DNA of 64,000 nt from the NCBI GenBank assembly GCA_964187785.1, contig OZ076409.1:868001-932000 (forward strand), written 5' to 3'. The notes under the pieces were generated by a model. That model did not search any database. It was given only the letters and a program-made list of their open reading frames with translations, and was not told the DNA's origin. The position numbers and the translations under genes are program-made. Below are positions 25,308 to 44,212 of the stretch, piece after piece; position 1 is the first letter of the stretch, and each line of letters opens with the position of its first letter. Origin of the DNA: Amphiscolops sp. MND2022 (lineage: Eukaryota).

Positions 25308-25314
25308 GTAGAAC

Positions 25315-25726
25315 TGTGATGCCATGATGCATGTCCTCAAAGATTTTATAAATCTGAAATACTCTGAACTCTTAACCGAAGAAATTAGTAAATCTAATTG
25401 AATCTAGAAACTAATTATTCTAGAAGAAACTTCATTTAATAGATCCTGTATCAAACTTCCCTGCTTCATCCTGTTGCTGTCACATTATTAATTGATGTAA
25501 CCTACCCTAGCTAATAGAATATATCTACTTGGAGAAATTGAGAATTCTTCCTAGCAATCAGTCTTCTTCCAGCACTTCAAGAACTGAGATCTCAGAAATA
25601 GATTGTACTCTGAACTAGCTAGCTATAAGATAAAAGATAAGACGACTCTGCTGTTAAAATCTTAGACTTCTTATGTCAATTCTAACTTGTATAAAAGAAA
25701 CAACCACCAAACTTTTTAACAGCTCA
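25315..25726 (+). repeat. 5' LTR of element 2
   Basis: Identical to 43004-43415 except ctAat/ctCat. Confidence 0.97.
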
Positions 25727-25728
25727 AT

Positions 25729-25745
25729 TGGTGCGACCACGAAAA
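25729..25745 (+). promoter_or_regulatory. Putative primer-binding site of element 2
   Basis: TGGTGCGACCACGAAAA begins 2 nt after the LTR; cognate tRNA not assigned. Confidence 0.65.
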
Positions 25746-25879
25746 TTCTTCTTTCTCTCCCATTTATTTCACACATCTACAATTGTTGTACACCTTTCCT
25801 CAACTTTCTCATTCGATATCTCTTTGTTCGACACACAGTCTCTCCACCTCTCAACATTGCAAGCCGTTATTAACTTCAA

Positions 25880-26184
25880 CGTTGCAACCAATTTCTACTT
25901 GAAATTGATCCGTGTTGCTATGGTTCTGACTGCGTTCATCAACGTAATTCCTGTCAGTCATACTTTTTGGTTCTGACTACGTTTCTTCACGTAATTCCTG
26001 TCAGTTAAATTTTTCGTTCCAACCACCTCTGAGTGAATTCGTGTTGGCTTTTTTCTTCTATCTTTCTTTCGTTCCAACCGCAGACGTGCGATACGTGTTG
26101 GCCCTTCTACAGTGCTATCCAGCGATTCCTGCTAGTAAAAATCTCTTTGGTTCTAGCCGCTTGGATCAACTTTAAAGTTGGCAC
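25880..26184 (+). ncRNA. Array of six covarying structured RNA motifs in the element 2 leader
   Basis: Units S-GTT-[P1 5 bp]-[P2 hairpin]-ATN-C-S'-T-[P1'] at 25880, 25922, 25969, 26015 and 26070, plus a permuted unit at 26117-26166; compensatory changes in P1, P2 and S:S'. Confidence 0.75.
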
Positions 26185-26424
26185 ACCTATATAACGCATC
26201 TTTTTCCATAACATCATTATAATACTTTTCTTATTCTCTCTTCTATACTACAAACCACATACAAAACTCCTTTAAAACTCTCTTACGGATCCAAATACAT
26301 AACAATTAAGATATATAACACATATATCACACCTCTCTTTACATTACTTTCATTTTTCATACACCTATATACAACAAAATTTTGTATAACTTCTTTGACA
26401 CACTCTTATAGAACTTTATTGTAC

Positions 26425-26547
26425 ATGCCGCCTTCAGTAGACATTGTAGTCAAACTCATTGTCTGCTTTTGATTCTTTGTTGCTATCGTTGCCGGTCTTG
26501 CACTTTTTCTAGACAAATTTTTAATTTCATTCATACCAAAATTTTAA
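26425..26547 (+). pseudogene. 40-codon hydrophobic uORF with an in-frame TGA
   Basis: MPPSVDIVVKLIVCF*FFVAIVAGLALFLDKFLISFIPKF. Confidence 0.35.
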
Positions 26548-26566
26548 AGTACAACCTTTTCCTTCT

Positions 26567-26806
26567 ATGTTAACAAGTATAGTACTACCTCTTTTTGGAC
26601 TACTTAGTATATACCACACTTTCAAAATACTTATCCAATATATACAAAACCCACTTCTTCTTTTCATAAGTATTGTACTTACTATTTTCATACAAGTTAT
26701 TTTCATAGATCAAATTTTACCATATAATTCACAATTCAATACAAAATATCTTCTTTTCCGATACATCTATCCTTTATGGCAATCCTATTGTACTAATCAA
26801 ACCTAA
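26567..26806 (+). CDS. 79-aa small membrane protein upstream of gag
   Basis: ATG start, two hydrophobic stretches, stop 9 nt before the gag ATG. Confidence 0.45.
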   Translation: MLTSIVLPLFGLLSIYHTFKILIQYIQNPLLLFISIVLTIFIQVIFIDQILPYNSQFNTKYLLFRYIYPLWQSYCTNQT

Positions 26807-26815
26807 TATCATATA

Positions 26816-29800
26816 ATGCTCCCCACTCCATTTACAGTCTCTAATGATAAAAGACAAAATCGATCTCTTATACAATATGTAACACCTTTTCTACAAAATA
26901 TTATCTTTCAGTACACTAACCCACTTCCATTTGAAACAGAACCCCATATATTACACACTATTCCATTAATACGAGAACATTGTGATTCCTACTTATATTA
27001 TATCCAATATAAAACACTTGACATAACACCATCACAAACTCCTTTCCAAGTTATTTTTAACCCTGTTAAAGGAATAAACTCTGGAACATTTTATAGAACT
27101 ATACACCCACAGAATATTACACTTTCTATACAAGATGTTTTTCGCACATACATGCAAAAACTCATTGAATTCAATGAACACCAAGACATACCACCTTATC
27201 GTCCTTCTCATTTACAAGAACTTAATCACTTATCTGAATATTTCGAGGTCCCTGATCTTGACACAAAAGTTCAAAGACATGGTAACCCTCATTATTGGCT
27301 ACAACGAGATATATTACAAATAAAGAACTTCGAGTTCAAATTCTTTACCAAAATTACCCTTACAGATGACACTATACCTCAAGTCAAAATTTTTACACAT
27401 TTCTTATTAAAATTCTTTAGATTTAACTACCAATTACTTTGGGAACAGAAAGACCAAAACGCTTATACTAACTTCCCAAAAGCATTAACAGATATAGAAC
27501 TCTTACCATACATCATAGACAATAAAAACAAACACTCACATTACATAGATCTTACTTCATTAAATGTTACACATTTTGAACAAATAAACCTAGATCACAA
27601 CTTTGTACTTGAACATTCTGAAACGTCAGATAGTAGACCTTATATTACATCTGATACTTTACATCAAACAACTCTTCAAACACAAACCTTTAATGTTGAA
27701 CCTCCATATATAAGACAACAATCAGAACAATCAGAACAAGAATCTATAACACAAGAAACACTTGTTCATCTTTTTCAAAATCCTGATTCTCCTCAAGAAC
27801 AATCACCCCAGCCACCACAATCACAAATCTTTGATACGCGACAACCAAATCCGTCTGAAACACATACACTTCCCAATACATCAGAACTTTCTGACGAAAC
27901 AGTACAAAATCCACAAAGTTTTACAATAACTGAGGACTCCAATCTTATAACAATTCCTACCCACAATATCCTCCAACGGACTACAAATCAGAATCAAGAC
28001 AACCCTTCAAATGTCATCACCGACAATACTTCTGTTTTATCCCCATATAATACTAATATTACACAACCCTCTCAGACACAAATACTACCTCCTCGAAATT
28101 ATGATCCACCCCCTATTCCTTCCCAATTTTCAGCTCAAATAAATACTCATGTCTCTCCTCAACCAAGTTCATCAAATACACACTCTATTACACAGAACAA
28201 TAATACAGTACATTTTCAAACACCAACTCCACCTTCATCTTCTGAAATACAAACTTCTACTTATACTCCAGCTCAAACTAACCCAGTACAAACTACACAG
28301 CCTACTTTAAATATTAACACAATTCATTCTAACCCGCCCTCTAACTATACTACAGCCAGTCATCTGTCTCGACCTCCATTACAACCTATATTAACTGACC
28401 CATTATCATACAATCTTACCAGCACCAATCTAAGTCATACCCAACAATCTCAAATAAACTATAACACACACAACCAATTAAACACTCTTTCTTCCCAGCA
28501 TACATCCAATACAATCCCTCCTACATTACAAACCTCTCACTTTCAAATATCAAATCCTCCTTCAACAACAATTAGAACTAACCCTCACTTTCATAATACT
28601 TCAATTATACCTTCAACTAATATTTCAAACCATCCTACGTATAATACAACACCTCCATCTACTATGTCTCATAACACTATGTCACATCCAACATATATTA
28701 ACTCTTCTACTTCTATATCAGAACCCATTAAACCTTTTGATGGACTCGATCACAACTATACACCTGAAGAATATTTACAACATATTGAGTCACGTGTTAC
28801 ATTCTCTTTAGGTTTACAACCTACCGCAGAACATGAATATAAATTTTGGCACGCTCGTCGCATGGCTTTCATACAATGCTCTTTAACAGGTACAGCACTA
28901 AGCTGGTACATCCGTTTAAACGACACTTATAAACATGATTGGCACGCTTTTGTACAAGCTTTCAAAAAACAATTTTCCTCACAAAAGAACGCTTATTATG
29001 CTCAAGTTGAAGCCCTTAACTTAACAAAGAAAGATAATGAAACAGTACGTCATTTTGCACTCAAAGTCCAACAACTGGTTGAAAAAGGCTGGTGTAATGA
29101 GAATGCATCTACTATAAACCTTAAATGTAATGAAATCTTTACAAAAGGACTTCCAAAAACCCTTAAAGATTTTGCAAACAAAAGACAAGTAAAACACACC
29201 TCTACTGTTCTAGAACCTTCGATTCCTTTTCATACTTTGGTAAAACTTGTTGACGCTGAAGATATTGCAAACGACAAAATTAGAACACATGATCTTGCAC
29301 TTGAAATAAACAATATTACAAAACAATTGAACACTCGAACCTTAGATCACCCATCTCAAGAACAACTTATGTATACACAACCCAAAGACCCAAATAACAA
29401 AAATAAACCTGCATATAAAAAATATTGCTCCTACTGTCATAGAACAAATCACTCCATTTCTGCTTGTTTCAAAAAACAACGAGATGATCAAGATAAACGA
29501 GAAGCATATGCTCGATCAAAATCTCCACAAAAATCATTCGTTCAGTACTTTCGTTCCCCTTCAAATGACAAAACAAAACACTATGATAATCGATATCGAA
29601 GTCGAAGTACTTCACGAGACAACTCTTATAACCAAAAATATTCACAAGATCGATACCGTTCTACATCTCGAGATAGAGACCGATTTCGTTATGATAAAAG
29701 TACTACTCCTCCACATTACTCCAGATCAAGATATGACACATATAAACGTGATTCTCGATCTTACCGTTCTCCTTACAGATCTTCTTATAGATCTCCATAT

Positions 29801-30085
29801 AGACAAAATTCTCGTCCTAGATACAGATCACGCTCTTATTCAAGAGATGACAAATTTAACAAATACACAAATTCATATAGACCACCTTCTAGACCAAGAA
29901 ACTCTCGATTTTCCAGATCCAGATCACATTCCAATTCCAGAAATAAAATCAATATAATACAACAACAGGAACAAACTGATCCTATCAAATTTGAGGTACA
30001 CATGTATCACCCAACAGCAATGGCAAATGCTGTCACATCACAAGTTGGTTTTATACTCTATATGTACACACCCCATCAAGTATAG
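26816..30085 (+). CDS. gag: Gag of element 2 (~1080 aa): N-terminal extension, S/T/P/Q/N-rich linker, capsid, CCHC knuckle, RS-rich tail
   Basis: IKPFDG...SLTGTALSWY...FKKQF capsid motifs; CSYCHRTNHSISAC at 29426-29467. Confidence 0.9.
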   Translation: MLPTPFTVSNDKRQNRSLIQYVTPFLQNIIFQYTNPLPFETEPHILHTIPLIREHCDSYLYYIQYKTLDITPSQTPFQVIFNPVKGINSGTFYRTIHPQNITLSIQDVFRTYMQKLIEFNEHQDIPPYRPSHLQELNHLSEYFEVPDLDTKVQRHGNPHYWLQRDILQIKNFEFKFFTKITLTDDTIPQVKIFTHFLLKFFRFNYQLLWEQKDQNAYTNFPKALTDIELLPYIIDNKNKHSHYIDLTSLNVTHFEQINLDHNFVLEHSETSDSRPYITSDTLHQTTLQTQTFNVEPPYIRQQSEQSEQESITQETLVHLFQNPDSPQEQSPQPPQSQIFDTRQPNPSETHTLPNTSELSDETVQNPQSFTITEDSNLITIPTHNILQRTTNQNQDNPSNVITDNTSVLSPYNTNITQPSQTQILPPRNYDPPPIPSQFSAQINTHVSPQPSSSNTHSITQNNNTVHFQTPTPPSSSEIQTSTYTPAQTNPVQTTQPTLNINTIHSNPPSNYTTASHLSRPPLQPILTDPLSYNLTSTNLSHTQQSQINYNTHNQLNTLSSQHTSNTIPPTLQTSHFQISNPPSTTIRTNPHFHNTSIIPSTNISNHPTYNTTPPSTMSHNTMSHPTYINSSTSISEPIKPFDGLDHNYTPEEYLQHIESRVTFSLGLQPTAEHEYKFWHARRMAFIQCSLTGTALSWYIRLNDTYKHDWHAFVQAFKKQFSSQKNAYYAQVEALNLTKKDNETVRHFALKVQQLVEKGWCNENASTINLKCNEIFTKGLPKTLKDFANKRQVKHTSTVLEPSIPFHTLVKLVDAEDIANDKIRTHDLALEINNITKQLNTRTLDHPSQEQLMYTQPKDPNNKNKPAYKKYCSYCHRTNHSISACFKKQRDDQDKREAYARSKSPQKSFVQYFRSPSNDKTKHYDNRYRSRSTSRDNSYNQKYSQDRYRSTSRDRDRFRYDKSTTPPHYSRSRYDTYKRDSRSYRSPYRSSYRSPYRQNSRPRYRSRSYSRDDKFNKYTNSYRPPSRPRNSRFSRSRSHSNSRNKINIIQQQEQTDPIKFEVHMYHPTAMANAVTSQVGFILYMYTPHQV

Positions 30086-33000
30086 TACAAAGAGACAACC
30101 CATCTAGACTAGAAATTGCATTCCTTCTAGATAGCGGTGCTTCTATTTCTGTACTCAATTATCCAACATATATAACTCTTACAAAACTTCTCGATATCAG
30201 ACCAAATCACACCTCTGATGTTGGACCAACTAGAAATTCCAAAACACTAACTGTTGCAAACCAAACTGAAGTTCCTATTTTACATTACGCAAATATCATT
30301 CTGAACACCACTATTGACGAAAACTCTCGATACTTTTCAGTACCCTTCGCAGTAGCTTATATTAAATACAATATCCTTGGTACACCATTCTTCGAAGACA
30401 ATATACAAAACATAAACATACAAGACTTTACACTCGAATTTAAATACCAATCAAAAACACACCCAAATTATGCAAAATTTACAACACTTCTATCTAAAGA
30501 TTATCCATACTTCTCTTACATTTATAGAATTAACTCAAAAACTCAAATACGTTTAAAACCCAAATCTTCCAAAATTGCACACTTTCCTATCCAAAATTAT
30601 CATAATCTTCATTTTACAACTACACCACAAAACCACTTCTTTCCTTCAGTACCTCATACCTATTTTGCTACCAAATTCCGTACAACTTTCAATTTTATTG
30701 AAGTTTTTACAGACGACAAGCCAGACATATGTGCAACTATTATTCAAAACACTTCAAAACATATTGCAACGCTACCTACAGGACATATTGGCTACATCGA
30801 AGTTCCAATTACTAATGAAAGACCTAAATTCTTCCAAGTTAACGACATTAATACTTTAATACCAAATGTTACTCATACTTATCATCCTGATATTACCGAA
30901 CCACTTCCACAAACCAATTATATTGTACAATATGATGATCCTACAACCCCTCCTCCACAATTCTCTTTACATCAAATTTATATGACAAATGACAACATTC
31001 CACACCAAACTTCTTCCCTATATAACGTTCAACCTACTTCTCATACCTCAGAAAAACGCATTTTCCCTTCTCTTCCATATACTTCTGAAAATCTGAAATT
31101 TATTAACAAATTTAACTTTCAATTTTCCGACCTTACAGATTCAGAATACATTACTCTTTGCAATATGCTCCTCAAATATAAAACATGTTATGCAACTCAT
31201 AAAAACGATGTTGGAAAAATTTCAACACCCTTTCGTATCCGACTTAAACCAAATGCTCAACTTATGACACAACGTCCTTCCAAAGTCCCTATTCATTATC
31301 GAGACAAATTAAATGCACTTCTCAAAGAACTTGAAAAATATAACATTATTAAACAAATTGGTTCTTCTCCTCAAGACAAACCCGTTTATGGCACAACTTA
31401 TTTAAATCCTCTTATTATAATCCCCAAGGGAGATACAATAAAATGTGTATTAGACGCTCGACATCTTAATTCCAATACAGAACAGTCTGATGAATCTTGG
31501 CCTATTGAACCTCTTGCTCCACAACTAGCACGCGCAAACAAAAAGTACAAATCTGCTATTGACCTTATGTATGCCTATGCACATACAGCTCTTGACGAAG
31601 ATACTATAAAACTTACTAGCTTCTCTTCAGGAGACAAACTTTTCGCTTTCATACGAGGCTTTTATGGTCTCAAAGGACTACCAAATTTCTTTACAAAACA
31701 AATGTCTACTTTCTTTAAAACTCTTATAGAACAAGGTTTCGCTCTTGTCTACATTGACGATATATTACTTTTATCCGACTCTAAAGAACATATGTTTCAA
31801 CTCATAGAACAATTACACATTATCAGTACAAAAAATAATCTTAAACTAGCCCCTGAAAAATCCTTTTTCATGCTCCTCAATGTCAAATTCCTTGGACATG
31901 AAATTGGTTACAATACAATTAAACCAATTCATTCAAAAATTGCAGCTATTCATAAGATCCCTTCTCCAACTGGCAAAGTTGCCCTAATGAGTTTCATTGG
32001 CGCACTCAATTTTTACACTAAATTTATTGAAAAACTACATATTAACCTCAAACCGTTTTACGATCTTTTACATGAAAACACTCCTTGGAAATGGACAGAC
32101 GAACACGAAAGTCTATTTCAAAAACTTAAAATGTCTCTCACTTCTGAAACAGAATTAACAATACCGAATACGAAACATCCATTTTTCATTACAGTTGACG
32201 CTTCCCTTATTGGATTAGGCGCTGTCTTATTCCAGTTAAATGAACAAAACAAAATGAAAGTCATATCGTACAACTCTCGTATACTTAGCCCACAAGAACA
32301 AAAACTCTCCACACTTGATAGAGAACTCCTTGGTATAGTACACGCACTTCAAATCTATGAATTTCTTATCATAGGTTCTCCACATCCAATACACATTTTC
32401 ACTGATCACAAACCTTTATTACATTGTTTTACAAAGAAAGGTAATCTCAGCCCCCGTTTCTATAGAGCTCAAATGCAATTGACAAAATTTTCAAAACTCA
32501 AAATAATTCACACCCCTGGAAAAAATCTCTCTGTTGCCGATATGTTGAGTCGCTCATTCACAAAAGCTGAATTACAACTTAACCAATTAAAACATAAACA
32601 CCTCCCACCACAAATCGATTTTGCACTTTTACAAGATAACACTCTTAAACCTGTACATTACTTAATAAAACACGAAGAAATTTTACCCCATCAAAAACAT
32701 GACTCCCATCCAATTCTTGCTGATTATGGTACAGATCAATTCTCTATTCGTATCAATGATAAAGGAAATGACATTATTGTAAAACCCTTACACTCTTTCT
32801 CATTCAAATCTGTAACTCCTTTTCAAACCAAATTTAAGACACCTACAAAAAAGAACAACAAAACCCTTCATCAACAATCTCTCTTACTTAATGATACTGA
32901 CGTTACAAGTGACGACGAAGATCATATTTACACCAGAATTCCAAAATCTGACTCTTCCTTCTCACAAGATACTACATTACAAACAGAAAATTATTCTACT

Positions 33001-35010
33001 CTTAAACAACCAAGTTACAACACCTCACAGAAATCAATTTCTGCAATAAATGTACAACCAAATTTACCATCTCTCACACACTGTCAACAAATTATACCTT
33101 TTTATGATACATCTTTCTTTAAGTACAAAAACTATTTTCAAGGTTTCTTCCTCCCCGATGATTACTCATTAGACATAAAAACTCTTCAACAACAACAATC
33201 TCAAGATCCGGTTCTCAGAACTGTTTATTCTTGGTTACTAAACAATGAAAAACCCGAATTTATAACACCTCTTATCACTGGTACTCCATTTCTACATGTA
33301 TATTACAAAAGATTTTCACAACTTTTCATTGATGAATCCACTAATCTTATTAGTCTGTACATTACAAACCCCACTGTTAATAACCAATCCTCTACTCCAA
33401 ATTTTGTACAAGATACTATTCGCATATGCCTACCTTTTCGACTATTTAAAACTGTCTTTAACAAACTTCATGAACATTCTCACACTGGTATGAAAATCAC
33501 CTACAATACATTCAAACAATGTTACTATATCCCATTCCTTGAAAAATGGCTTTCCTTTTTCATACATGACTGTATTGAATGTCAACGTAATAAACACTTC
33601 AATATGAAAATTCAAACTGCTCCTACACAATCATTTTCAGAACATGCTCCATCTTTCAACCATAGAATCTCAATGGACACTAAAGGACCTATTAATCCTC
33701 CTTCTCATAATAAATCCTATATACATGTAATAATTGACGCTTTTAGTCACTTTGTTGTTACAGTACCCATCAAATCAAACAACGCAAAGACTGCTATCAA
33801 AACTCTCCTACACCATTGGATTATTAAATTTGGACCACCCATATACCTTGTCACTGATCGTGGATCAGAATATGTTAACAAAGAAATGGCACATCTTTGT
33901 ACACTTATGGGAATTCGTCATTCTCCTAGAACAGCTTATTCTCCTTGGACAAATGGCCTTGTTGAAGTACAAAACAGAAATCTTGGTACTCATCTTCGAA
34001 TGTTCCTACATGACACACCTAAAGATTGGGCATTTCAAGTCCATATGTACGCTTATGCACATAATTCACAACCACTTTCAGAACTCAATGTTTCACCTCA
34101 CGAAATTGTTTTCCATACTAGACCCAGAATACCCCTCACATTTGATTTAAACCTTAATCGAGATACCTCCAAGACATGTATTTCACGTTATTGTTCTCAA
34201 CTCCCTGAACACTCTCACTATGATAAATCAGACTTAAACCCATTCTTCTATAAAACACTCTCAAAACCCATTCCCCAATGGTTTCTCGCTGTAGAAACTG
34301 CTATGTTACAAATTTACTCTACAGTCTACGAAAACACTCTACGAAAAATTAACTCACACGCATACATTACAAAAACTTACCACGAAGGTAAACCCCTTCC
34401 CATTGATACCTTTGTTTTAAAACGCAATTTTACACATGTTCACTTTTCAGACAAACTCAAACCCCTTCGGATTGGACCATATAAAATTCTTGACAGACTA
34501 TCAGACGTCACATATGCATTACTTGCACAAGATGGCTCTATAGTACACGTTCATAGAAATCATTTAATCCCATATTACCCTAAAGAACCACTCTTGTATC
34601 CACATTTGCGTAATTTTATGCGCTTTTCAGACACAACTCAAAACCAAATTCCACAAATTACCAGATATGCAAACAGTGATTCTTCCCCGTTTAACTCTGA
34701 TGAATCTTTGTCTGAAGAAGATTCTCAAACATTTATGACACCACCATCATTTAGTACATCCAATCAAAATACACCATCTATAACATCCAATGACAAGTCT
34801 TTACCTTCCTCAACCAATGACAACTCCTTATATAAACATATAATTAATACCCCTCACACTAATGTCCCTAGTGACAGATCGAGACACCCTTCTAACAACC
34901 AAACAACTTCACTTCCTCCTCTAATTGACAGAACCACAAAAACCACTTATAAACTGCGACAACAACCCAAATTAGATTATAGACTTTTTATTACACCTTC
35001 CCAACTGTAA
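29995..35010 (+). CDS. pol: Pol of element 2 (PR-RT-RNaseH-IN-GPY/F), in the -1 frame relative to gag
   Basis: Frame is stop-free from 29995 (manual translation): FLLDSGAS at ~30130, NILG, YIDD (~31750), TVDAS, HEHSH..CIEC, D-D-E (MDTKG/TDRG/LVE), RIGPYKI. Confidence 0.95.
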   Translation, partial: GTHVSPNSNGKCCHITSWFYTLYVHTPSSIVQRDNPSRLEIAFLLDSGASISVLNYPTYITLTKLLDIRPNHTSDVGPTRNSKTLTVANQTEVPILHYANIILNTTIDENSRYFSVPFAVAYIKYNILGTPFFEDNIQNINIQDFTLEFKYQSKTHPNYAKFTTLLSKDYPYFSYIYRINSKTQIRLKPKSSKIAHFPIQNYHNLHFTTTPQNHFFPSVPHTYFATKFRTTFNFIEVFTDDKPDICATIIQNTSKHIATLPTGHIGYIEVPITNERPKFFQVNDINTLIPNVTHTYHPDITEPLPQTNYIVQYDDPTTPPPQFSLHQIYMTNDNIPHQTSSLYNVQPTSHTSEKRIFPSLPYTSENLKFINKFNFQFSDLTDSEYITLCNMLLKYKTCYATHKNDVGKISTPFRIRLKPNAQLMTQRPSKVPIHYRDKLNALLKELEKYNIIKQIGSSPQDKPVYGTTYLNPLIIIPKGDTIKCVLDARHLNSNTEQSDESWPIEPLAPQLARANKKYKSAIDLMYAYAHTALDEDTIKLTSFSSGDKLFAFIRGFYGLKGLPNFFTKQMSTFFKTLIEQGFALVYIDDILLLSDSKEHMFQLIEQLHIISTKNNLKLAPEKSFFMLLNVKFLGHEIGYNTIKPIHSKIAAIHKIPSPTGKVALMSFIGALNFYTKFIEKLHINLKPFYDLLHENTPWKWTDEHESLFQKLKMSLTSETELTIPNTKHPFFITVDASLIGLGAVLFQLNEQNKMKVISYNSRILSPQEQKLSTLDRELLGIVHALQIYEFLIIGSPHPIHIFTDHKPLLHCFTKKGNLSPRFYRAQMQLTKFSKLKIIHTPGKNLSVADMLSRSFTKAELQLNQLKHKHLPPQIDFALLQDNTLKPVHYLIKHEEILPHQKHDSHPILADYGTDQFSIRINDKGNDIIVKPLHSFSFKSVTPFQTKFKTPTKKNNKTLHQQSLLLNDTDVTSDDEDHIYTRIPKSDSSFSQDTTLQTENYSTLKQPSYNTSQKSISAINVQPNLPSLTHCQQIIPFYDTSFFKYKNYFQGFFLPDDYSLDIKTLQQQQSQDPVLRTVYSWLLNNEKPEFITPLITGTPFLHVYYKRFSQLFIDESTNLISLYITNPTVNNQSSTPNFVQDTIRICLPFRLFKTVFNKLHEHSHTGMKITYNTFKQCYYIPFLEKWLSFFIHDCIECQRNKHFNMKIQTAPTQSFSEHAPSFNHRISMDTKGPINPPSHNKSYIHVIIDAFSHFVVTVPIKSNNAKTAIKTLLHHWIIKFGPPIYLVTDRGSEYVNKEMAHLCTLMGIRHSPRTAYSPWTNGLVEVQNRNLGTHLRMFLHDTPKDWAFQVHMYAYAHNSQPLSELNVSPHEIVFHTRPRIPLTFDLNLNRDTSKTCISRYCSQLPEHSHYDKSDLNPFFYKTLSKPIPQWFLAVETAMLQIYSTVYENTLRKINSHAYITKTYHEGKPLPIDTFVLKRNFTHVHFSDKLKPLRIGPYKILDRLSDVTYALLAQDGSIVHVHRNHLIPYYPKEPLLYPHLRNFMRFSDTTQNQIPQITRYANSDSSPFNSDESLSEEDSQTFMTPPSFSTSNQNTPSITSNDKSLPSSTNDNSLYKHIINTPHTNVPSDRSRHPSNNQTTSLPPLIDRTTKTTYKLRQQPKLDYRLFITPSQL

Positions 35011-35111
35011 TCTGGTCATTCTCCCTGTTGGCTTACTCAAACCTAGTCACTCTGGTTGAATGAATGTTGAATAAATGAAATAAAACCCATAACAAGTTAT
35101 CTTAAAGATAA

Positions 35112-36368
35112 CCTGTTGAAAACACTTCAACAATCCTGGATCCTCCCTCTGATATCTCTCCATCAGCTCCAAGTATTCCTTCTACACCTGAATCTTCAGT
35201 ATCAAACAGCATAAACTCTAGTAATGTAACTCCTACTACTCCTTCTAAAAGACCCAGATCATACATCTCTGAAACCTCTTCTTCTTCACTTCTTCACAGA
35301 CCACCTATAACCGAAATTCCTATAAACACTCGTCCCCAACAAACTCCTATTAACACTCCTATTATACACATACCAAACCCTGAAAGTGTTGAACAATACG
35401 TAACATACAAACACCCTACAGCTATCAAAACTGTTAGACTCCAACCTCAACTTAATCTAGTACAAATTCCTGATACTGAATATACGAAACTACCTCCATT
35501 AAAATTACCTTCAGAACTTAGCACTACAGAACTTAGTACTACTTCTTCAAAACTTTATCCACCCTTAAAACCTCTTCGAAAACCCTCTACATCACTCTCA
35601 AATCTCTTAGACAATAATACTTCTGACTACGCTCCATCACAAGACACAAGCTCATTTTTTGTACCCAGACATAGATATAATCTTCGTGATCTTCCTTCAC
35701 GTAGACTTAGTACAGACACTTCCACACTCAATTTTTCCGCTCTTTCTAGCAATTCTGCATTACGACTTGTAAGACAACACGCTCAACCATTGTCCTCTGA
35801 CCCATCATCTTCAGAACTCTTTCAATCTCCTTATTTTACTTCCGGTTTTGAAACCGCTTCATTACTCTCATCTAATCCACAAACTGCATTCCTATCAGGA
35901 GATCTTTTTTCACAAGTAGTAATCCCTACTCCTGTTCCTGCACATATTAGACTACCTGAATACTATACTGCAGAACATTCTAGACCTCCAACCCCAAATT
36001 TTGCTGATTATCCACTTCGAGTCGATGGTATAACTATCTACGACCCACAAAACGATCCTCGATTTCCAATTCTCGCAGAACGTTTTATTAATAACAACGA
36101 TCTCTTATCTCATAAACGTAAAGAAACAGAACTAAAACGTCTCCAGACACCAAATTTAGAACTTAAATTTGAAGTCAAAGTCAAATTTCAAGGATTAAAT
36201 CCTCATCCAATATTTCACGTTTCTAAAATAGAACATAAAACCTCTCCTGCTCCTTTTGAAGTAGTACATATTGAATTTGAACGCGATCTTAATATACCCA
36301 CTATCACATATGGCAATATTGTCTTCTGTAACCCATACTCTGGTCTCAAATATAAGACATCCTTTTAA
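35112..36368 (+). CDS. Met-less ~418-codon open frame (P/S/T-rich N-part, globular C-part), unknown product
   Basis: Stop-free from 35112 to 36368; the ORF track shows only the part after TTG 35790; codon style matches gag and pol. Confidence 0.6.
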   Translation, partial: PVENTSTILDPPSDISPSAPSIPSTPESSVSNSINSSNVTPTTPSKRPRSYISETSSSSLLHRPPITEIPINTRPQQTPINTPIIHIPNPESVEQYVTYKHPTAIKTVRLQPQLNLVQIPDTEYTKLPPLKLPSELSTTELSTTSSKLYPPLKPLRKPSTSLSNLLDNNTSDYAPSQDTSSFFVPRHRYNLRDLPSRRLSTDTSTLNFSALSSNSALRLVRQHAQPLSSDPSSSELFQSPYFTSGFETASLLSSNPQTAFLSGDLFSQVVIPTPVPAHIRLPEYYTAEHSRPPTPNFADYPLRVDGITIYDPQNDPRFPILAERFINNNDLLSHKRKETELKRLQTPNLELKFEVKVKFQGLNPHPIFHVSKIEHKTSPAPFEVVHIEFERDLNIPTITYGNIVFCNPYSGLKYKTSF

Positions 36369-39014
36369 ATCCTACACAACCTCTTATCTAACACCTATAA
36401 TTCTTCTCTTACATTTATTTAAATCTACCTTTTCCATACCTATAGTACTCCCTGATACAGAAAACTATCTTCCATCGGATGACCCGAATATTACAAATCT
36501 CATGGTTTCTCATTATGACTGTGCAAAACAACACAATCTCAGACAATTTAATCTACTTAATGTAAAACAATGCACTGAAGCTCCTTCTGACATTAAACAT
36601 GCAAGTGTTAAAGCCCGTGTATATGTCCGCGCAAAAGCTAAACGTATCAAAGCTTTCAAATGTGTTGCTTATGCAAAGAAAGAAAGGAAAATATGCTTTC
36701 AAGGATCTGTCAAATACCGTCGTGTTGATCGTACAGTATGGAATCATAATACATTACCGCTTCCTGTTACTCTTGATCCGGTAGAATGTAAAAACATTAT
36801 AAGACATTTAAATGGTACAAATGATAAAATATTGAACAACCTTAACTACAACAAAACATTTACACTCTTAGAAGATCATTACTTTCAAGAACGTTTAGAA
36901 CAATATCAAACTCCTTTCACTGTATATCAATTGAACAAAATGTATACAGGTACATTTACATTCATGCCTGCTGATAAAAACTGGATATATGACCCTACAA
37001 AAAACCCTTATCATAACTGTCCTGCTCATCATCAATTCGAAGTCAACTTAGTTAGTTGGCGACTAGAAGTTTCCGAAATAGAACTTACATATGATGACAC
37101 ATCAAATGACATGATAATTGACATACATTACCCTGCTATTTTGCAGACGGCTTCTGTAAACCCACTACAAAAAATCCTTTTACTCTTGTTTGGTTTAATG
37201 ATGATTACTGTCTAATTTTTACCCTACAAGACTTTATTGGACGTATGACTAAAATTGAAGATAGATATTGGATTGAAACAGACTCTTTTGTACATTCTCC
37301 ACATCCAGTAAAATCTCAAACTGCTTCTGGCATAAAAGGTACAGAACATCCTTATGTTCATGCCCCTCATACACAACATCCAAATAACCCAAGTCTTTCA
37401 AGATTTGAAGTTTTTCCTACAGCACAAACCTTTTGTGGTAAACCAGACCCTCTCTATTCTACACAATACTCAGACCTTTTTGTTACATACACTGATGGTT
37501 TTAATATGCATACAGGACAACCTAATCCTCATTCCATAATTGATGAGTATATCTCTGGTAAAATAGTATTGGACACTTCAAATAACAAATTTGTATTCCC
37601 TGCATTAAATGTATCAAACAATTTCGCTACCATTGATTATGATGCACATATAAACACCAAAATTGACTACACTATTAATCATGTTTTTCGATCAATGATA
37701 GTACAAGAACTAAATACTCTTCATACAATATGTGAACTAGAACGAAATCAACTCCTTACAATACTCGCAATGTCAGTACAAAATCCTCAACTTGCTGGTT
37801 TCCTTCTAACTGGTAATAGAAGTAACTTCTTATACGTTGAAGGCTCAACCGCCTGGCTTTATGACTGTCCTCATTTTTTATCTCCTTTATACAAAGCAGA
37901 TAGATGTTTTGACCGTATACCCATACATTTTAAAGATACCTTAATGTACGTTGATCCTATTACAAGACAAACTTATGATTATGCTACACCAATTACATGC
38001 GATAATAATCCGCGTAACATTATTGAACTAGACCCTGATTCAGATGATCAAGACTTTTACATTCTTGGACCTGAACCTATCAAACGTAAACCTCCACTAA
38101 TGTTTACTCCCTCACAAATCAAAACTACAATACGCCCTAATACTTTTACAGCCCAAGATGCTGGTATATATTCAAATGCAGAACTTGATCAATTTTGGAA
38201 CCGTATTTTATTTTCTAAACACTCTGATTCTACACTCCAATTGCTAGGTAAAGCTCTTAGTTATTCATTCATTTCATCTAATACTCCAAACTACGATGCA
38301 GATTCCCCTCAAGACTCTGGTAATCCTTACAATACATTACGAATAGGACTACATGATAAACTCTTGAACTTAACCCCTCTTTTCACACCTACATGGTTCT
38401 CTGATGTTTTTATTGCACTTTTTGGATACCCTTGTTACATTCTTACACAATGTGGCATATACTTTTCTACATTTCTTTTTATACAAGCTACTCTTACACT
38501 TATTGTTAAACTTTACAAAACAATATCTATTAAATATAATCTAAAAAATAATATTACTTTACTTAGTTCTATTGCACATGGTTTTTTTAATGTTCTTACA
38601 GCACGAATGGTCAGTGACCTACATGAGGCTCAAAACAAAAAACCCAAAAGTACACTTTCCAAATCCAAATCTTTAGATAACTTTATTGACACTTCTCCCA
38701 ATTTAATTAACCATTCTACAGATGTTACTTCCCCTCCACCTTTTTATACTAAACGATCTAACAAAATTCAATTTCCTAAATTTAACTATTTTCCGAAACG
38801 ACACCACAATTCTCACCATAAAACGACTCCACTTCCTTTCTCTTCTGTCCAACATCCCCCACTTCCTAATTATACTCATAAAAACTTTCACTCGAATGAC
38901 AATCTAACTACTCAACATGACACTTTAATTAACAATTCTGTCACTTCTACTACGGATACACCAATTAAAATCTATTCACGAATAAACTATCCTTTTCCTC
39001 CTCCATCTTCTTGA
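36310..39014 (+). pseudogene. env: Env: class III (chuvirus/herpes gB-type) fusion glycoprotein, ~900 aa, frameshifted at ~37121
   Basis: Signal-like LTPIILLLHLF; VSHYDC; LPCYFADGFC...TLVW (read in the second frame from 37122); FCG..LYSTQY; INTKIDY; ICELER..LAMSVQNP..G; CFDRIPI..YVDPITR..PITC; C-terminal TM and tail. Confidence 0.8.
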
Positions 39015-39263
39015 ACTCTCTCCCAGTTCTTCTGTAACTCTCTTCCAGAACACTCGCCTGCTATTTCTTCACAATTGCTACTCCTCCACCACTTGAAACT
39101 CTTGCAGAAATTCATCTTCCTCAATCTAATAATACTTCTCTCATAATAACCATCTTCAAAAACTCTTCAACTAAAGTTGACAAATCCACTCGTTAGTGTA
39201 ATTTATAGTACTTTAACTTTAAAGTGCTAAGGCCTCTTGGAATAGATAACACTGTGACTGTTG

Positions 39264-40607
39264 ATGCTTTCTCAAACAATGACACAAGCACAAATTGACC
39301 TACAAACACAGCTTGAACAAGCAACCCCAACAGATCTTATAACAAGACCTCTTTCTAATGATTCTCCTGTTCTCTATATTGATACTTCTGAAAAAACACC
39401 TCCAACTTTTCTTGAACCAATGGAACACACAAAAGTTGAAAATGAAAATCCAAAACCTACTCCCCCACAAGATGATACTGATCATACACAATCGACACCA
39501 CCTCCTCCGAAAAAACGATATGAAATAATGAAAGATCCAATCTTTCTTTCATCACCAATATATCCTCCTTCAATACCTTCAAAAATTTCACTTTGCACGA
39601 ATCGCGATGATCATTTGATCTCAATTCTTTCCACTGATGATTTCATCTTTAAAGCACAACTAACTTCTCTATATATGCATCCTAAGGACTACTCATTTCG
39701 CTTATATGACAAAAATCAAGACTTCTTCACATCCATTGCTTCCAAAATAATGGGTCCATACCAATATTGGCTCGAGAATGGAGTTAAAATTTTCTCTCTC
39801 CAATTCAATTTTCTTAGACCTTCTATCTACGATCTCAAAACGGATGAATCTGATCCATCCTTTCTCTCTATAGCACAGAAAGCTTCTCATCATCAGACAT
39901 ATACTAAATTTCTACAATACACGAAACCACAAAATTATATTTTTGTCAATTACAAATATACATCACCGTTCACAATGACAAATATGTACACTCTCGACCA
40001 CTCCTGTATAACAGGCTATCTTCGGAACTATGACCCTATAAAGCAATACTTCTGTTTGCTTCCATATAACAATACTTCACGTCCACTTATCGTACCTCAA
40101 GAATATCTCATACATTACGATGATTTTTTGTTGCCTTGCAACATCCCTACTCAAATTGCAAAACCTCTTACTGTTATTAAACACCTCGTTTCTTCTCCAC
40201 TTGACGATAAAGATAGAACATACTATACAGCACTCTACAAACAAACGTATTCCTACAATGAACTCCTCTTTATATCTGCCAAAACTATCTCTTTCATGGT
40301 ACAAGCTGAACAAAAAACTGAACATAAATCACACACTTCACCCATCAAAAACACCCATGACAAACTTTCCTCTGTATTAAACAATCGAACACTTCGAGAC
40401 ATAACAAATTTACTGGAACCCTATAAACGAAACTCTTCTGAAACACCTATCACAACACTCACACATATACTCCACTGCTATGACAGAACACACAAACTCC
40501 TTCAGACACTCGATTTAGATTCTCAACGCATCACTCAATCATCCCAAGCAATTCAATCTGCTTTGGAAACTATAACTACTCTTTTTAATTCAACTAATCT
40601 TCATTAA
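39264..40607 (+). CDS. Orphan accessory ORF (~447 aa) of element 2
   Basis: Long intact ORF inside the LTR boundaries; no recognised family. Confidence 0.75.
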   Translation: MLSQTMTQAQIDLQTQLEQATPTDLITRPLSNDSPVLYIDTSEKTPPTFLEPMEHTKVENENPKPTPPQDDTDHTQSTPPPPKKRYEIMKDPIFLSSPIYPPSIPSKISLCTNRDDHLISILSTDDFIFKAQLTSLYMHPKDYSFRLYDKNQDFFTSIASKIMGPYQYWLENGVKIFSLQFNFLRPSIYDLKTDESDPSFLSIAQKASHHQTYTKFLQYTKPQNYIFVNYKYTSPFTMTNMYTLDHSCITGYLRNYDPIKQYFCLLPYNNTSRPLIVPQEYLIHYDDFLLPCNIPTQIAKPLTVIKHLVSSPLDDKDRTYYTALYKQTYSYNELLFISAKTISFMVQAEQKTEHKSHTSPIKNTHDKLSSVLNNRTLRDITNLLEPYKRNSSETPITTLTHILHCYDRTHKLLQTLDLDSQRITQSSQAIQSALETITTLFNSTNLH

Positions 40608-41016
40608 ACTTCTCTACAGGTAATATAAAGTTTTAAATTTTCTTCTCTGGTACATTCTATGGTACAGCTGTGGCACATTTTACAAGGTATTTTCATTTTT
40701 ATTTAACGAAAATCCTTACTTTTGAATGAAATCTCAGGACTGTTTTTTAAGTACACTAATTTTTCCTACAGTACATGTCAAAAACTAACTATTTTTTACT
40801 CAAAACACTACAATACAAGACATACAAGACAATATAAAATAACACTACATATGGTACATTATAGCACCCATTTTTGTTGTACATCTTTGACTTGATATTG
40901 TCATTCTTCTTACACTTCCTTTGTTTTAGAAACATCCATTCTTCCTTCTCCTTCATCCAAATTCTTTCAGAACATCCCAACTTCTCTTTCTTCGTATTCT
41001 TCAAACTCTCGTCATA

Positions 41017-41469
41017 ATGGCTCCAAATGCTGAAACAAACGACATTCTAACAATGACTTCAGAATTTTCGAAAGTGCATAGTCTCAAAGCCGCCATATTT
41101 CATACCATGGCCTTCAAACTCTCGCTTGAGATTCACAAAAACAAAATTACGCCAAAATGCCTCATCGCTTTCTTAAAAGTACTCTACAACGTCACGCAAA
41201 TAAAGAAAAAGAAAATCACTTTCGAGCAATATTCGCGAATCCATCTTCAAGGACCTAAAATTGCCATTTGTGAAACGGCATCTAATGTTGTTTTCGTCCT
41301 CAATTCATCTTTCACGTCAAAGGATCAGTACTTTCGTACTGCTATCCAAGAAGCTACAGATGCTTTTAATAATATGTTACAAGATTTCGGGTATACTCAA
41401 CAACTAGAACTTTATGACCCGATACAACATCAACCTCATCCTCCATCGCAAAACTCTCTCTTTCAATAA
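41017..41469 (+). CDS. Orphan accessory ORF (150 aa) of element 2
   Basis: ATG in a good context (ataATGG), protein-like composition. Confidence 0.6.
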   Translation: MAPNAETNDILTMTSEFSKVHSLKAAIFHTMAFKLSLEIHKNKITPKCLIAFLKVLYNVTQIKKKKITFEQYSRIHLQGPKIAICETASNVVFVLNSSFTSKDQYFRTAIQEATDAFNNMLQDFGYTQQLELYDPIQHQPHPPSQNSLFQ

Positions 41470-41691
41470 TCTCTAACACAAACTTCTACTTACTTCTATT
41501 TCACTCTTTGACTACATTTCGTCTCCAAATCCTTCATCTTCTTTCGATGATGCTTCGAAATGTGGTTGATGATTACTTCCAAGAACTCCTACACATGCTG
41601 AAACTCTTCACTTCACCCACCCACGATGGTCAACAACATCCATCTACACTTTGGGTTCATCGACGTTACCAAAAATTGTCCTCGTCATCGT

Positions 41692-41880
41692 TCTTCACAC
41701 TTCAAATGCTGACTTCGTGACTGGTCTTCTTCACACCACAATTGCTGACTTTGTGAACTGGTCTTCTTCACACCACAATTGCTGACTTTGTGAACTGGTC
41801 TTCTACACACCTCAATTGCTGACTTTGAGAACTGGTCTTCTTCACACCTCAACTGCTGACTTCGTGAACTGGTCTTCATA
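41692..41880 (+). repeat. Tandem repeat, ~5 x 37 bp, in the element 2 3' UTR
   Basis: Unit TCTTCTTCACACCACAATTGCTGACTTTGTGAACTGG. Confidence 0.9.
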
Positions 41881-43003
41881 CTTCAATGGCCGATACAAAT
41901 TTCAAACTGAACTGTATAATCACTTATAATCAATATAACCTGTAACCCATTTTAATCCAACAATAATATAGACTAGTGCTATATACTCGTATCTAAATTT
42001 TAGTGCTATATAATCTCATCTAATCGTAGTATACTAGTGCTATATACTCCTATCTAATCTTTCGCGTTATATAATCTTAATCTTATATAACCATTGTATA
42101 ATTAAACCCCATTAACCATAATCCTTCCCAAATTCTACCCATAATTATTCTTGTAACCACAATATTATTTACTTCCATTGTATTGTGTATAGAACTTTAA
42201 CATTATCTTACATAATTATCCACTTCAAAATACATTTTAATCCCCGTCTTTTTACAGAACACAAGTCCTACTTACAGCACAAGAAATTTTCTAAGATTTT
42301 TGGACAAAAATTTTTTCTTTTACAAAACATGTTCTACAACTTTTCTTTAACCCTCAAAAGCATTCCCAAAAAATTTTCCAAAATTTTCTTTCGACCTCTT
42401 GAAAATTGTCACTTGTAAAAAATGTCACTTCTAGTTTTCAAATGTTTGAAACTTGAAATAGCCAAAGTTTTTTTTCAACTCTTGCTTCTGCTCTACTCTT
42501 CACTTTTGTTGAAAATGAACTCTCACTTCAACCTTGACTTTTCAAAACTTCTTCACTTTTGGTTCACATACCCGCCAATGTTGGTTCACAACTCATTGAC
42601 AACTCAACGCTTTAATTCTTCAACTTGAAAAGTTTTCAATGCTGACTAACTCATGTTGATGAAACAAACTTTTTCAACAAGCCGATGGCTGATACGTACG
42701 AAAAAGAAACATGAAAGAATAAATAGTTGTCAACAATAACTTCAAAGAACTTGTCAGTCAAAGAAACTGAAAGAATTTGAACCTGTTTGAACCTTTTTGC
42801 ACCAATTGAATCGTCTATGACGTAAAGAAGTCAAATCGTCTTAGGTTGTTCTCACTCCTTAAGTATGGTACTCTACAAAACGAAACTCATGCAACTTTAG
42901 CACAACACATATGAAACAAACCCATGCATATAACAAAAACTTCTAGAACTCCTCAAACTCAAAAGTGCATATATGTAATTTTATTTTTAAATTCCCGGTT
43001 GAT

Positions 43004-43415
43004 TGTGATGCCATGATGCATGTCCTCAAAGATTTTATAAATCTGAAATACTCTGAACTCTTAACCGAAGAAATTAGTAAATCTAATTGAATCTAGAAAC
43101 TAATTATTCTAGAAGAAACTTCATTTAATAGATCCTGTATCAAACTTCCCTGCTTCATCCTGTTGCTGTCACATTATTAATTGATGTAACCTACCCTAGC
43201 TCATAGAATATATCTACTTGGAGAAATTGAGAATTCTTCCTAGCAATCAGTCTTCTTCCAGCACTTCAAGAACTGAGATCTCAGAAATAGATTGTACTCT
43301 GAACTAGCTAGCTATAAGATAAAAGATAAGACGACTCTGCTGTTAAAATCTTAGACTTCTTATGTCAATTCTAACTTGTATAAAAGAAACAACCACCAAA
43401 CTTTTTAACAGCTCA
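43004..43415 (+). repeat. 3' LTR of element 2
   Basis: 411/412 identical to the 5' LTR. Confidence 0.97.
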
Positions 43416-44212
43416 GAACTGCATAACAAGATTGTACACCTGTAAAACTTCCAGGCTTCGAATTCACCGCCAAATTTTAGAATCGTTTTTCAGTTTGATA
43501 AAATTTGTTTACAGCAGGGACGCGAGAGCGCAAACAAGTTCAAAAAAAGTCGTAGGAAACGTAGTTGATGATCTCCAAAAACGCTAGTTTGCTTTTGGTA
43601 AAAACAGTTGAAAACGTCTTCAAGAAACTCAATCTGTTGTGATGATATTCAACATGAACTAATCGTCTTGCTATGTTTTAGAAAGAAAGCACAAGAATCG
43701 ATGAAAGCGGAGTTGTTCAGAAAGAGTCAAAACAAAAGACATAAAACGATACAAGAAATGTCCTTCATTTTGATTTCATCAAATGTCCTGTGAATCAATA
43801 GAAAGTACTCAAAAGTCGGCGCCTGCTTGAGCATCAAACAGAGCGACTTGAATGAAATAATTAAATTCTTGATATCCCTTCAAAATATCGCCGCACATCA
43901 TGGAAAGATATTGACAGGCAAGCTTGGCTCGAATAATTTCACTACTTGGAAACATTTGAAGGAACTTTTTGTGAACTGAAAGAAAACTCAAAGAATCATG
44001 TCATCTGTTGAAGCTTTGTTATTCAAAGAGTGTTTGTGTACTTTTTTGACGTGTACGTTAGGCGTAATGCAAATATTTTTTGAACTTTCAAAAACTAATA
44101 CAAGTTGTCCTTCCAAAAATGAAAAAATCTGCAGCAATATTTTCATAACTATAGTTAATCAGTTCCAGTGCTGGCTCGACTGATATGAAGAAATATTATA
44201 ACAAATAGAAAG

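Follow-up and report, generated by a model that had tools for sequence, protein, structure and literature searches.

The stretch of DNA analysed here, called the window, comprises 64,000 nucleotides (nt) of contig OZ076409.1 of Amphiscolops sp. MND2022. Its positions 25315-43415 were found to hold a copy, inserted recently but already defective, of an enveloped Ty3/gypsy (Metaviridae)-type retroelement family of very high abundance. The 5' part of the family plan consists of a long terminal repeat (LTR), a tRNA-Met primer site, a leader, the gene TM79 and one gag-pol frame (protease, reverse transcriptase, RNase H and integrase, in this order). The 3' part consists of the open reading frame (ORF) ORFx, an env gene for a PF24664-type fusion glycoprotein, ORF447, ORF150, a repeat-bearing untranslated region (UTR) and the second LTR. 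The features of the window copy were as follows (aa, amino acids).

25311..25314 (left) and 43416-43419 (right): target-site duplication GAAC, 4 bp, abutting both LTRs
25315..25726, + strand: 5' LTR, 412 bp, TG..CA ends, identical to the 3' LTR at 411/412 positions
25727..26566, + strand: leader, with a 47-nt direct repeat at 25921-26014
25729..25739, + strand: primer-binding site, beginning 3 nt past the 5' LTR
26567..26806, + strand: TM79, 79 aa with two hydrophobic helices, ending 10 nt ahead of the gag ATG
26816..30085, + strand: gag part of gag-pol, matching Retrotrans_gag (PF03732, 1.5e-8)
29995..35010, + strand: pol part, with protease, reverse transcriptase, RNase H and integrase
35112..36368, + strand: ORFx, 418 codons, Met-less, overlapping the env start
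36310..37215, + strand: N-terminal part of env, matching PF24664 at profile positions 25-137
37122..39014, + strand: C-terminal part of env, matching PF24664 (3.1e-19) at profile positions 289-509
39264..40607, + strand: ORF447, with a proline-rich basic N-terminus, a mixed middle and long C-terminal helices
41017..41469, + strand: ORF150, a small accessory gene
41470..43003, + strand: 3' UTR, containing tandem repeats of 37 nt (41683-41904) and a pair of 61-nt repeats (41969-42077)
43004..43415, + strand: 3' LTR, 412 bp, one mismatch to the 5' LTR

The preliminary description of this stretch had reported paired 412-bp LTRs with a single mismatch, a 4-bp duplication, a primer-binding site and a repeat-containing 3' UTR, and all of these were borne out. 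All 11 nt of the primer-binding site were found to pair with a host tRNA-Met(CAT), at its 3' end with CCA added; the tRNA gene was identified by ARAGORN at locus L045. All frames of at least 150 codons between the LTRs lay on the + strand, with the large ORFs in the order first stated. The leader, which had been called structured, folded better than shuffled sequences, but only modestly so (minimum free energy z of -2.18); it contained an ATG-free stretch of 505 nt (25920-26425). The tRNA-Met(CAT) gene itself was located at L045 25-97 (-) and at several other loci sharing the 3' end TTCGAGCCTCAC..., with six identical matches, and variants of the gene matching the primer site were clustered on contigs C12 and C6.

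The 1.07-Gb assembly (1929 contigs) was searched for further copies. With the LTR, 41 matches at 99-100% identity were listed, the best 40 of 2528 first-look candidates having been scored. Thirteen pairs of LTRs, including the window's own, were 17.37-17.73 kb apart, and others were separated by 16.4, 19.4 and 3.4 kb. Chance falls far short of accounting for the element. A sample of ten sister copies, nine whole and one 3' half, was taken for comparison (11 copies with that of the window). All ten could be aligned to the window across the whole internal region fetched, with 97.0-99.5% identity in long blocks. The window copy had accumulated 37 private substitutions in 17.3 kb (0.21%), which was consistent with the LTR divergence of 1 in 412. 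The earlier view of a young, multi-copy Ty3/gypsy-type element with env was upheld. In the 3' UTR, the number of 37-nt repeats differed between sisters, with indels of 33-40 nt in 8/10.

The domain content of gag-pol pointed to the Ty3/gypsy group. The gag part contained a CX2CX4HX4C knuckle, a long middle region rich in Q, S, T, P and N, and a PPHY motif. In the pol frame, the protease motif DSGA was found at residue 46, RVT_1 at 513-637 with YIDD at 586, RNase H at 700-832, Integrase_H2C2 at 1149-1201 and rve at 1222-1317, which is the Ty3/gypsy order. Only Ty3/gypsy-type families were matched by pol in Pfam, and there was no match to BEL/Pao families. The assignment would rest on the LTR, duplication and primer-site anatomy together with the gag domain, the knuckle and the order of the pol domains.

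Gag and Pol had been described as separate ORFs. Both are present, but they are separate only in the window copy: in 9/9 sisters spanning the site, one extra base was found after 30039 and gag-pol formed a single frame, with a longest open stretch of 2691 codons. The extra base was also present in a contig of run X1. The separation of gag and pol is thus a private 1-nt deletion of the window copy. The same was true of env, for which a protein of 589 aa had been given. This ORF covers the C-terminal two thirds, comprising the core of the ectodomain, the membrane anchor (around residues 720-755) and the tail, about 150 aa long, whereas the N-terminal part is encoded by a 301-aa ORF with the start codon, a hydrophobic signal-like segment and the start of the ectodomain. 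Four extra bases near 37116-37119 and a single env frame were observed in 9/9 sisters spanning the site, and the split is a private 4-nt deletion of the window copy. Because gag-pol and env each carry a private deletion, the window copy is not a candidate infectious element. The suggestion that it was possibly infectious was thus not sustained for this copy, and every frame was open in 0/11 copies. The family frames were about 2760 codons for gag-pol and about 900 codons for env. Gag-pol was open end to end in 0/9 sisters, env in 1/10 (a 913-codon frame) and ORF447 in 5/10; ORFx and ORF150 were open in 10/10, and TM79 in 9/9.

The natural full-length env of one sister (P0002) matched PF24664 ('Monjiviricetes_fusion') with an E value of 3.6e-23 and 81.8 bits against a cut-off of 27. 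This was the only Pfam family matched by env, and no F-type envelope family was found. PF24664 is a family that we take to include chuvirus proteins. When env was compared with PDB as a single sequence, only two chance-level matches to condensin were returned (E 0.11-0.12), and a 22-sequence env profile gave 0 matches there. Env clusters contained 1758, 603, 1585 and 424 member sequences. A distant env, P0448, was 36-38% identical to many open env frames of 690-820 codons in the host genome.

Besides gag-pol and env, the element carries TM79, ORFx, ORF447 and ORF150, which are real genes under purifying selection. They were found in the same order in 10/10 sisters. The sisters were colinear with the window through the region 3' of pol; therefore the downstream ORFs belong to the element and are not nested insertions missing from other copies, which the preliminary description had itself named as a refutation. 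The plan was also kept in a divergent subfamily with 67-80% DNA identity, described from one copy. This copy has a 78-aa membrane ORF ahead of gag, a single gag-pol frame with at least 2378 codons open, a Met-less ORFx of 420 codons overlapping the env ATG, env, a 473-aa homologue of ORF447 and finally a homologue of ORF150. The TM79 proteins of the two subfamilies were 39% identical (E 1e-18), though blastn aligned no DNA at 26207-26876, and the ORF150 proteins were 66% identical (DNA 67%). For ORF447 of the divergent subfamily, 90 loci out of 8651 candidates were scored; they were 98-99% identical, and 88/90 were stop-free.

A still deeper lineage was represented by locus L048 (G000:C8:58168200-58177700). 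Protein identities to the window element were 63% for the end of pol, 36% for ORFx, 44-57% for env and 42% for ORF447, and its ORFx was a Met-less frame of 478 codons. No match to ORF150 was found at this locus; an unrelated frame of 313 codons stood in its place (L048 8527-9465), so that the last accessory gene seems to be exchangeable.

The ratio of non-synonymous to synonymous substitution rates (dN/dS) was calculated for each ORF on the collected copies, as had been proposed earlier. From variants common to at least two sisters, values within the subfamily of 0.08 for pol, 0.08 for the C part of gag, 0.25 for the N part of gag and 0.15 for the C part of env were obtained. The extra ORFs gave 0.12 (ORFx), 0.05 (ORF447) and 0.04 (ORF150), and TM79 gave 0.27 (3 non-synonymous and 3 synonymous variants). 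Three control frames from the UTR and leader showed dN/dS of 0.95, or 7 and 4 non-synonymous variants against 0 synonymous ones. Between the subfamilies, where synonymous sites were near saturation (dS 1.1-1.6), pol had a ratio of 0.08, ORFx one of 0.14, env 0.08-0.11 and ORF447 0.12; for ORF150, 0.25 of non-synonymous sites (pN) and 0.86 of synonymous sites (pS) differed. These results agreed with the earlier count of at least four accessory ORFs. Of the small membrane ORFs that had been noted in the leader region, the 79-aa one at 26567-26806 was conserved, but the others were not: the ORF at 26212-26472 was interrupted by 40-nt and other indels in 7/9 sisters, and that at 25695-25976 showed no sign of constraint in the sister comparison.

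Homologues of the extra proteins were numerous but all without names: 250 for ORFx, and for ORF447 277 by word index and 581 representatives by profile. One relative of ORF447, P0255, was at most 44-50% identical to anything scored in the host genome, and may therefore come from another organism. The search with P0255 also returned many open ORF447-like frames of 376-601 codons in the host genome, 92/94 of those scored being stop-free. It could be argued that the extra ORFs are chance frames or unrelated insertions of one copy and that the 18-kb length is an artefact of nesting, as they have no Pfam, PDB or structural match and codon statistics are unusual in G-poor sequence. Such an explanation is hardly credible and is already refuted by the order kept in 10/10 sisters, in the 67-80% subfamily and mostly in the deep lineage, by dN/dS of 0.04-0.14 against about 1 in the control frames, and by hundreds of homologues, including one, perhaps from another source, with only 44-50% identity to anything in the host genome.

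To judge how ORFx and env may be expressed, the distribution of start codons was inspected. ORFx contained no Met codon in the window or in 7/10 sisters, and it was likewise Met-less in a subfamily with about 82% identity (3/3 intact loci), in the 67-80% subfamily and in the deep lineage. ATG in any frame occurred only 2, 3 and 1 times in the ORFx of three lineages, compared with means of 6.7, 8.4 and 7.7 after codon shuffling; 106, 86 and 6 of 5000 shuffles, respectively, reached the observed counts. The same codon shuffles revealed no depletion of ATG in gag, pol, env, ORF447 or ORF150. The longest ATG-free run of the element, 801 nt, lay inside ORFx ahead of the env start, and a further ATG-free stretch of 347 nt preceded the start codon of ORF447. 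A candidate CUG start codon was located at 35136-35138, nine codons into ORFx, with A at -3 and G at +4. The CTG-G was the same in 5/5 lineages while the preceding codon varied (ATC, AAT, ACC, ACG and ATC, for I, N, T, T and I), and it stood out against a third-position G content of 1.2% in ORFx.

These features resemble those of rice tungro bacilliform virus (RTBV), in which, according to the available part of a published account, ribosomes are able to reach the downstream ORFs across an AUG-free stretch of about 900 nt that comes after a non-AUG start (PMC5902531). Based on the conserved CUG, the avoidance of ATG and the likeness to RTBV, we propose that ORFx is initiated at the CUG and that the env AUG is reached by leaky scanning. 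The full-length RNA would serve as genome and as gag-pol mRNA, and the genes 3' of pol would be expressed from one or more subgenomic RNAs. On such an RNA, ORFx, which is without AUG in each of the five lineages inspected, would initiate at the conserved in-frame CUG 35136-35138 in its strong context, and most ribosomes would scan through about 1.2 kb, nearly ATG-free in all three frames, to the env AUG at 36310. A single mRNA might then yield Env in quantity and ORFx sparingly, in the manner of ORFs I-III of RTBV. The sequence thus suggests that ORFx and env share one mRNA by leaky scanning.

Two other explanations for the Met-less ORFx were considered. ORFx could be an N-terminal extension of Env, joined to it either by splicing or through a +1 shift within the 59-nt overlap. 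It would then form a long leader in the cytoplasm that precedes an internal signal-anchor and bears some likeness to the leader peptide of foamy-virus Env. This would agree with the lack of a start codon in ORFx, with the position of its end within the env start region in all lineages, and with the divergent proteins P0226 and P0210, which continue from ORFx into env sequence. Nevertheless, we consider it distinctly improbable: P0226 and P0210 are single copies among 250 matches (18 aligned), env has an ATG of its own and is read in another frame than ORFx in 10/10 sisters and in three other lineages, no slippery site is known at the overlap (none having been looked for), and an extension of Env would not require the avoidance of ATG across ORFx.

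Alternatively, the start codon of ORFx could be supplied by splicing, the donor lying in the leader, in TM79 or at the start of gag and the acceptor past the pol stop but ahead of ORFx; Env would then depend on another splice or on reinitiation. Start codons are gained in this way by the env mRNAs of Drosophila gypsy and of avian retroviruses. A Met-less first ORF after pol is the product to be expected of such an event, and in three lineages a pyrimidine tract followed by YAG was found shortly past the pol stop. The accessory protein CERV of the C. elegans element Cer1, moreover, comes from a spliced mRNA, as stated in the portion of that report available (PMC10309623). In the window, however, the candidate acceptor at 35046 is separated from ORFx by an in-frame stop at 35109-35111. 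At locus L035, where codon 10 of TM79 is joined to ORFx, the junction was found at a CCTC..TG microhomology without GT-AG. Splicing alone would also leave the avoidance of ATG in all frames unexplained, and we regard it as rather unlikely.

Locus L035 (G000:C13:9111245-9115474) belongs to a subfamily with about 80% identity. It is without gag-pol and has a partial extra LTR piece ahead of its 5' LTR. The leader and the first 10 codons of TM79 are fused to ORFx, and an in-frame product of 410 aa (P0134) is encoded. That L035 represents a spliced retrocopy was rejected; given the microhomology and the lack of GT-AG, the junction looks like a template-switch deletion.

The sense strand of the element was strikingly poor in G. 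G made up 10.1% of the element, against 18.9% of the window outside it. GC skew ranged from -0.27 to -0.50 in 7/8 segments of 2 kb wholly inside the element; the remaining segment, with the 3' LTR, had a skew of -0.19. In the adjoining flanks the skew was near 0, and the composition changed sharply at the LTRs. G amounted to 8.4-10.1% across three lineages, with about 10% in the divergent subfamily and 8.4% in the deep lineage. At third codon positions, G was reduced to 1.2-6.9% in five ORFs and was 14% in ORF150, and Gly made up 0.7-2.9% of residues.

A substitution spectrum was obtained from changes seen in exactly one sister relative to the window, per kb of source base; it is a crude measure, as the window served as the reference and selected and neutral changes are mixed. 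The rates of G>A and C>T were equal (3.65). The other pairs were asymmetric, with T>C at 2.59 against A>G at 1.31, A>C at 1.21 against T>G at 0.33, and C>A at 1.40 against G>T at 0.81. It was calculated that the corresponding rate matrix has its equilibrium at A 33.4, C 22.5, G 13.5 and T 30.6, close to the observed 34.4, 24.2, 10.1 and 31.3. Mutation of integrated DNA is expected to be symmetric between the strands. The asymmetry thus points to an origin of the bias in the RNA or cDNA phase, and the shortage of G would be kept up by a strand-asymmetric substitution bias of that phase of the cycle. A literature search on strand-asymmetric, G-depleted retrotransposons returned nothing relevant among the papers listed.

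Little could be learned about the nature of the extra proteins. At E values up to 5, Pfam gave nothing credible for ORFx, ORF447, ORF150, TM79 or the N part of gag. An ORF447 profile had 0 matches among PDB sequences, and in the ESM Atlas there was no usable match for ORF447, while the C-terminus of ORFx only reached scores of 0.82 or less. With within-family alignments, AlphaFold2 modelled ORF447 at a predicted local distance difference test (pLDDT) score of 33 and ORFx at 41.6. The first 300 residues of ORFx were without confident structure, and residues 300-418 formed a small alpha+beta C-terminal domain with pLDDT of 50-68. Foldseek found 0 matches of the ORFx model in PDB and BFVD at E up to 0.001, and no relative was confirmed in IMG/VR scans with the env and ORF447 alignments. 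It was also considered whether ORF447 and ORF150 are a captured chuvirus-like N/VP4 block. This candidate received no support, as there was no Pfam match, and the modelled secondary structure was mixed alpha/beta with a coiled C-terminus.

The composition of ORFx was mostly rich in Ser, Thr and Pro, with a basic KRPRSY word. A PSAP word was present in 2/3 lineages and a YPxL word in 3/3, the latter without a demonstrated alignment between lineages. Such words resemble the late-domain motifs of retroviruses, and in a composition like that of ORFx the chance of finding them was roughly estimated at about 0.06 and 0.2, respectively. With low confidence, and as the weakest guess of this report, ORFx might help in particle release.

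Taken as a whole, the account given above, namely a young but defective copy, the family plan, the proposed mode of expression and the origin of the G bias, is very probably the best explanation of the locus. Several points nevertheless weigh against parts of it. Any subgenomic RNA, splice site or start site is a prediction from sequence. The CUG encodes part of a conserved Leu-Asp, and protein constraint alone could keep it. Simple scanning is complicated in the window's subfamily by three very short ORFs with ATG starts, which lie at 35060-35085, a little upstream of the CUG. ORFx is in frame with the tail of pol in one divergent copy (P0163) and with env in others (P0226 and P0210), each a single copy, and might be made as an extension of a neighbouring gene. 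No purine-rich tract was found directly upstream of the 3' LTR, and the crudeness of the substitution spectrum counts on the same side. The putative class III, glycoprotein B (gB)-like fold of env would follow from its membership of PF24664 together with a published statement on Chuviridae-like glycoproteins, quoted below. As noted, none of the 11 copies was fully open; present-day activity is inferred from near-identity only, and some of the 1-nt frameshifts could be errors of the assembly.

The closest systems known to us are envelope-carrying Ty3/gypsy elements. Chary & Hayashi (eLife 2026, PMC13524379) described, in the part of their text available, 1512 such elements from various animal phyla, the envelopes being of the F or the gB type; for most elements, several near-identical copies were present. 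They stated that the Chuviridae-like glycoprotein of mosquito BEL/Pao elements also adjoins gypsy POL genes and is structurally like gB. The present element resembles their 'ancient errantiviruses' with ENV of the HSV/gB type (HSV, herpes simplex virus) in its gag-pol-env order, Ty3/gypsy pol, non-F envelope, many near-identical copies, tRNA primer site and LTRs, but differs from them, as far as that text goes, in its length of about 18 kb, a gag-pol of about 2760 codons, four extra genes and about 10% G. Within the same text, the word 'accessory' occurred 0 times and 'additional ORF' twice, once in a general remark and once in the title of a reference. The 12-mer of the primer-binding site was absent from the supplementary tables, which were searched for that word only, so the family may be listed there. 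The earlier remark that this combination of ORFs matched no named family therefore holds in part: a gag-pol-env plan with a non-F envelope is already described from animals other than insects, but the set of extra ORFs is not treated in the available text of PMC13524379.

Mosquito BEL/Pao elements with Chuviridae-like glycoproteins were reported by Dezordi et al. (2020, PMC7642597). To judge from what is accessible of that work, they share with the window element, whose env matches PF24664, a glycoprotein of the type found in negative-strand RNA viruses, whereas pol is here of the Ty3/gypsy type (RT_RNaseH, rve and Integrase_H2C2). The insect errantiviruses gypsy, ZAM and Idefix are unlike it in having an F-type envelope, env here matching PF24664 only. 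With the complex retroviruses (lenti-, delta- and spumaviruses) and the large foamy-like endogenous retroviruses (ERVs) of fish, it has in common accessory genes 3' of pol and env and a strongly skewed composition; it differs from them in its Metaviridae-type domain set, its other class of envelope and its unrelated accessory proteins. Bicistronic rev/env and vpu/env mRNAs of primate lentiviruses are mentioned in the accessible part of PMC5902531. By the same partial source, RTBV and the badnaviruses (Caulimoviridae) share with the window element a non-AUG first ORF followed by about 0.9-1.2 kb free of AUG; the likeness is no more than a working analogy, as these are plant pararetroviruses without LTR integration, in which the mechanism was demonstrated experimentally, while here it is proposed from sequence.

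According to Arkhipova & Yushenova (PMC6431247), ORFs can be acquired by LTR elements downstream of pol or env, the portion consulted covering Burro, Ogre and the 17-kb foamy-like ERVs of fish. In bdelloid elements, varied ORF3s are described in the accessible part of PMC5408684. Like Burro of planarians, Ogre of plants, the bdelloid elements and Cer1/CERV, so far as these partial sources extend, the present element is of the Ty3/gypsy type and exceeds 10 kb or bears extra ORFs downstream. Of the extra domains of those giant elements (BIR, BCL2, MATH, dUTPase, GDSL and DEDDy), none was found here. Burro is unlike it, according to the same limited sources, in carrying env in frame inside the polyprotein. 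Pfam and database searches gave no similarity to CERV, although no direct comparison was made.

Against this background, the set of four accessory genes, the translation signature of ORFx and env, and the extreme strand bias look new. A broader reading is possible, which we put forward tentatively and would not expect to hold in all its parts. It joins the observations into a deep, host-wide lineage of enveloped Ty3/gypsy elements that turned 'complex' independently, with fixed genes specific to the lineage, expression by CUG initiation and leaky scanning, and a mutation bias in the replication phase. The gene set would consist of a small membrane protein ahead of gag, a Met-less and largely unstructured protein with late-domain-like motifs ahead of env, and a protein of 450-550 aa behind env. 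The mutation bias would have driven the genome to about 10% G, thereby reshaping all proteins (Gly 0.7-2.9%).

Elements of this kind that carry env have so far been treated as three-gene elements, and here at least three or four further genes are under selection as strong as that on env. In vertebrates, it is by extra selected genes that 'complex' retroviruses are told apart from 'simple' ones. Should the extra proteins have a role in RNA export, budding or host antagonism, such functions would have arisen independently outside Retroviridae, and the proteins would be handles on the movement of the element between soma and germline. With ORFx and env, leaky scanning of the viral kind could be tested in an animal retroelement, and the G-poor genome serves as a natural experiment on the extent to which protein composition can be altered by a mutation bias tied to replication.

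The family appears to form a sizeable share of the 1.07-Gb genome, which matters for its annotation. Copies of the window's subfamily were clustered in places: six LTRs (three pairs) were found within 200 kb at G000:C11:45.76-45.96 Mb, and seven LTRs on contig G000:C940 (136 kb). At G000:C10:26362992-26363647, a whole LTR was followed at once by a 244-bp LTR piece. Locus L027 (G000:C7:1829168-1833170) was a 3.4-kb derivative consisting of one LTR, the leader, gag up to the equivalent of window position 27822 and the other LTR. In run X1, for which the kind of library is unrecorded, low-depth contigs 90-99% alike to the element were relatives of it.

In the flanks of the window copy, repeats with AAAGGGGGGACCCTTT-like cores at a spacing of 126-178 nt were observed on both sides of the insertion, at 24746-25150 and 44825-44876. 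It seems that the element was inserted within an array of repeats or into some other repeat. The unrelated remnant of a second LTR retroelement was located at 8372-13518 (+). It consists of three consecutive frames with DUF1759, an aspartic protease, RVT_1, RNase H and the start of an integrase zinc domain, and its sense strand is A-rich (AT skew of about +0.2) and not G-poor like that of the main element.

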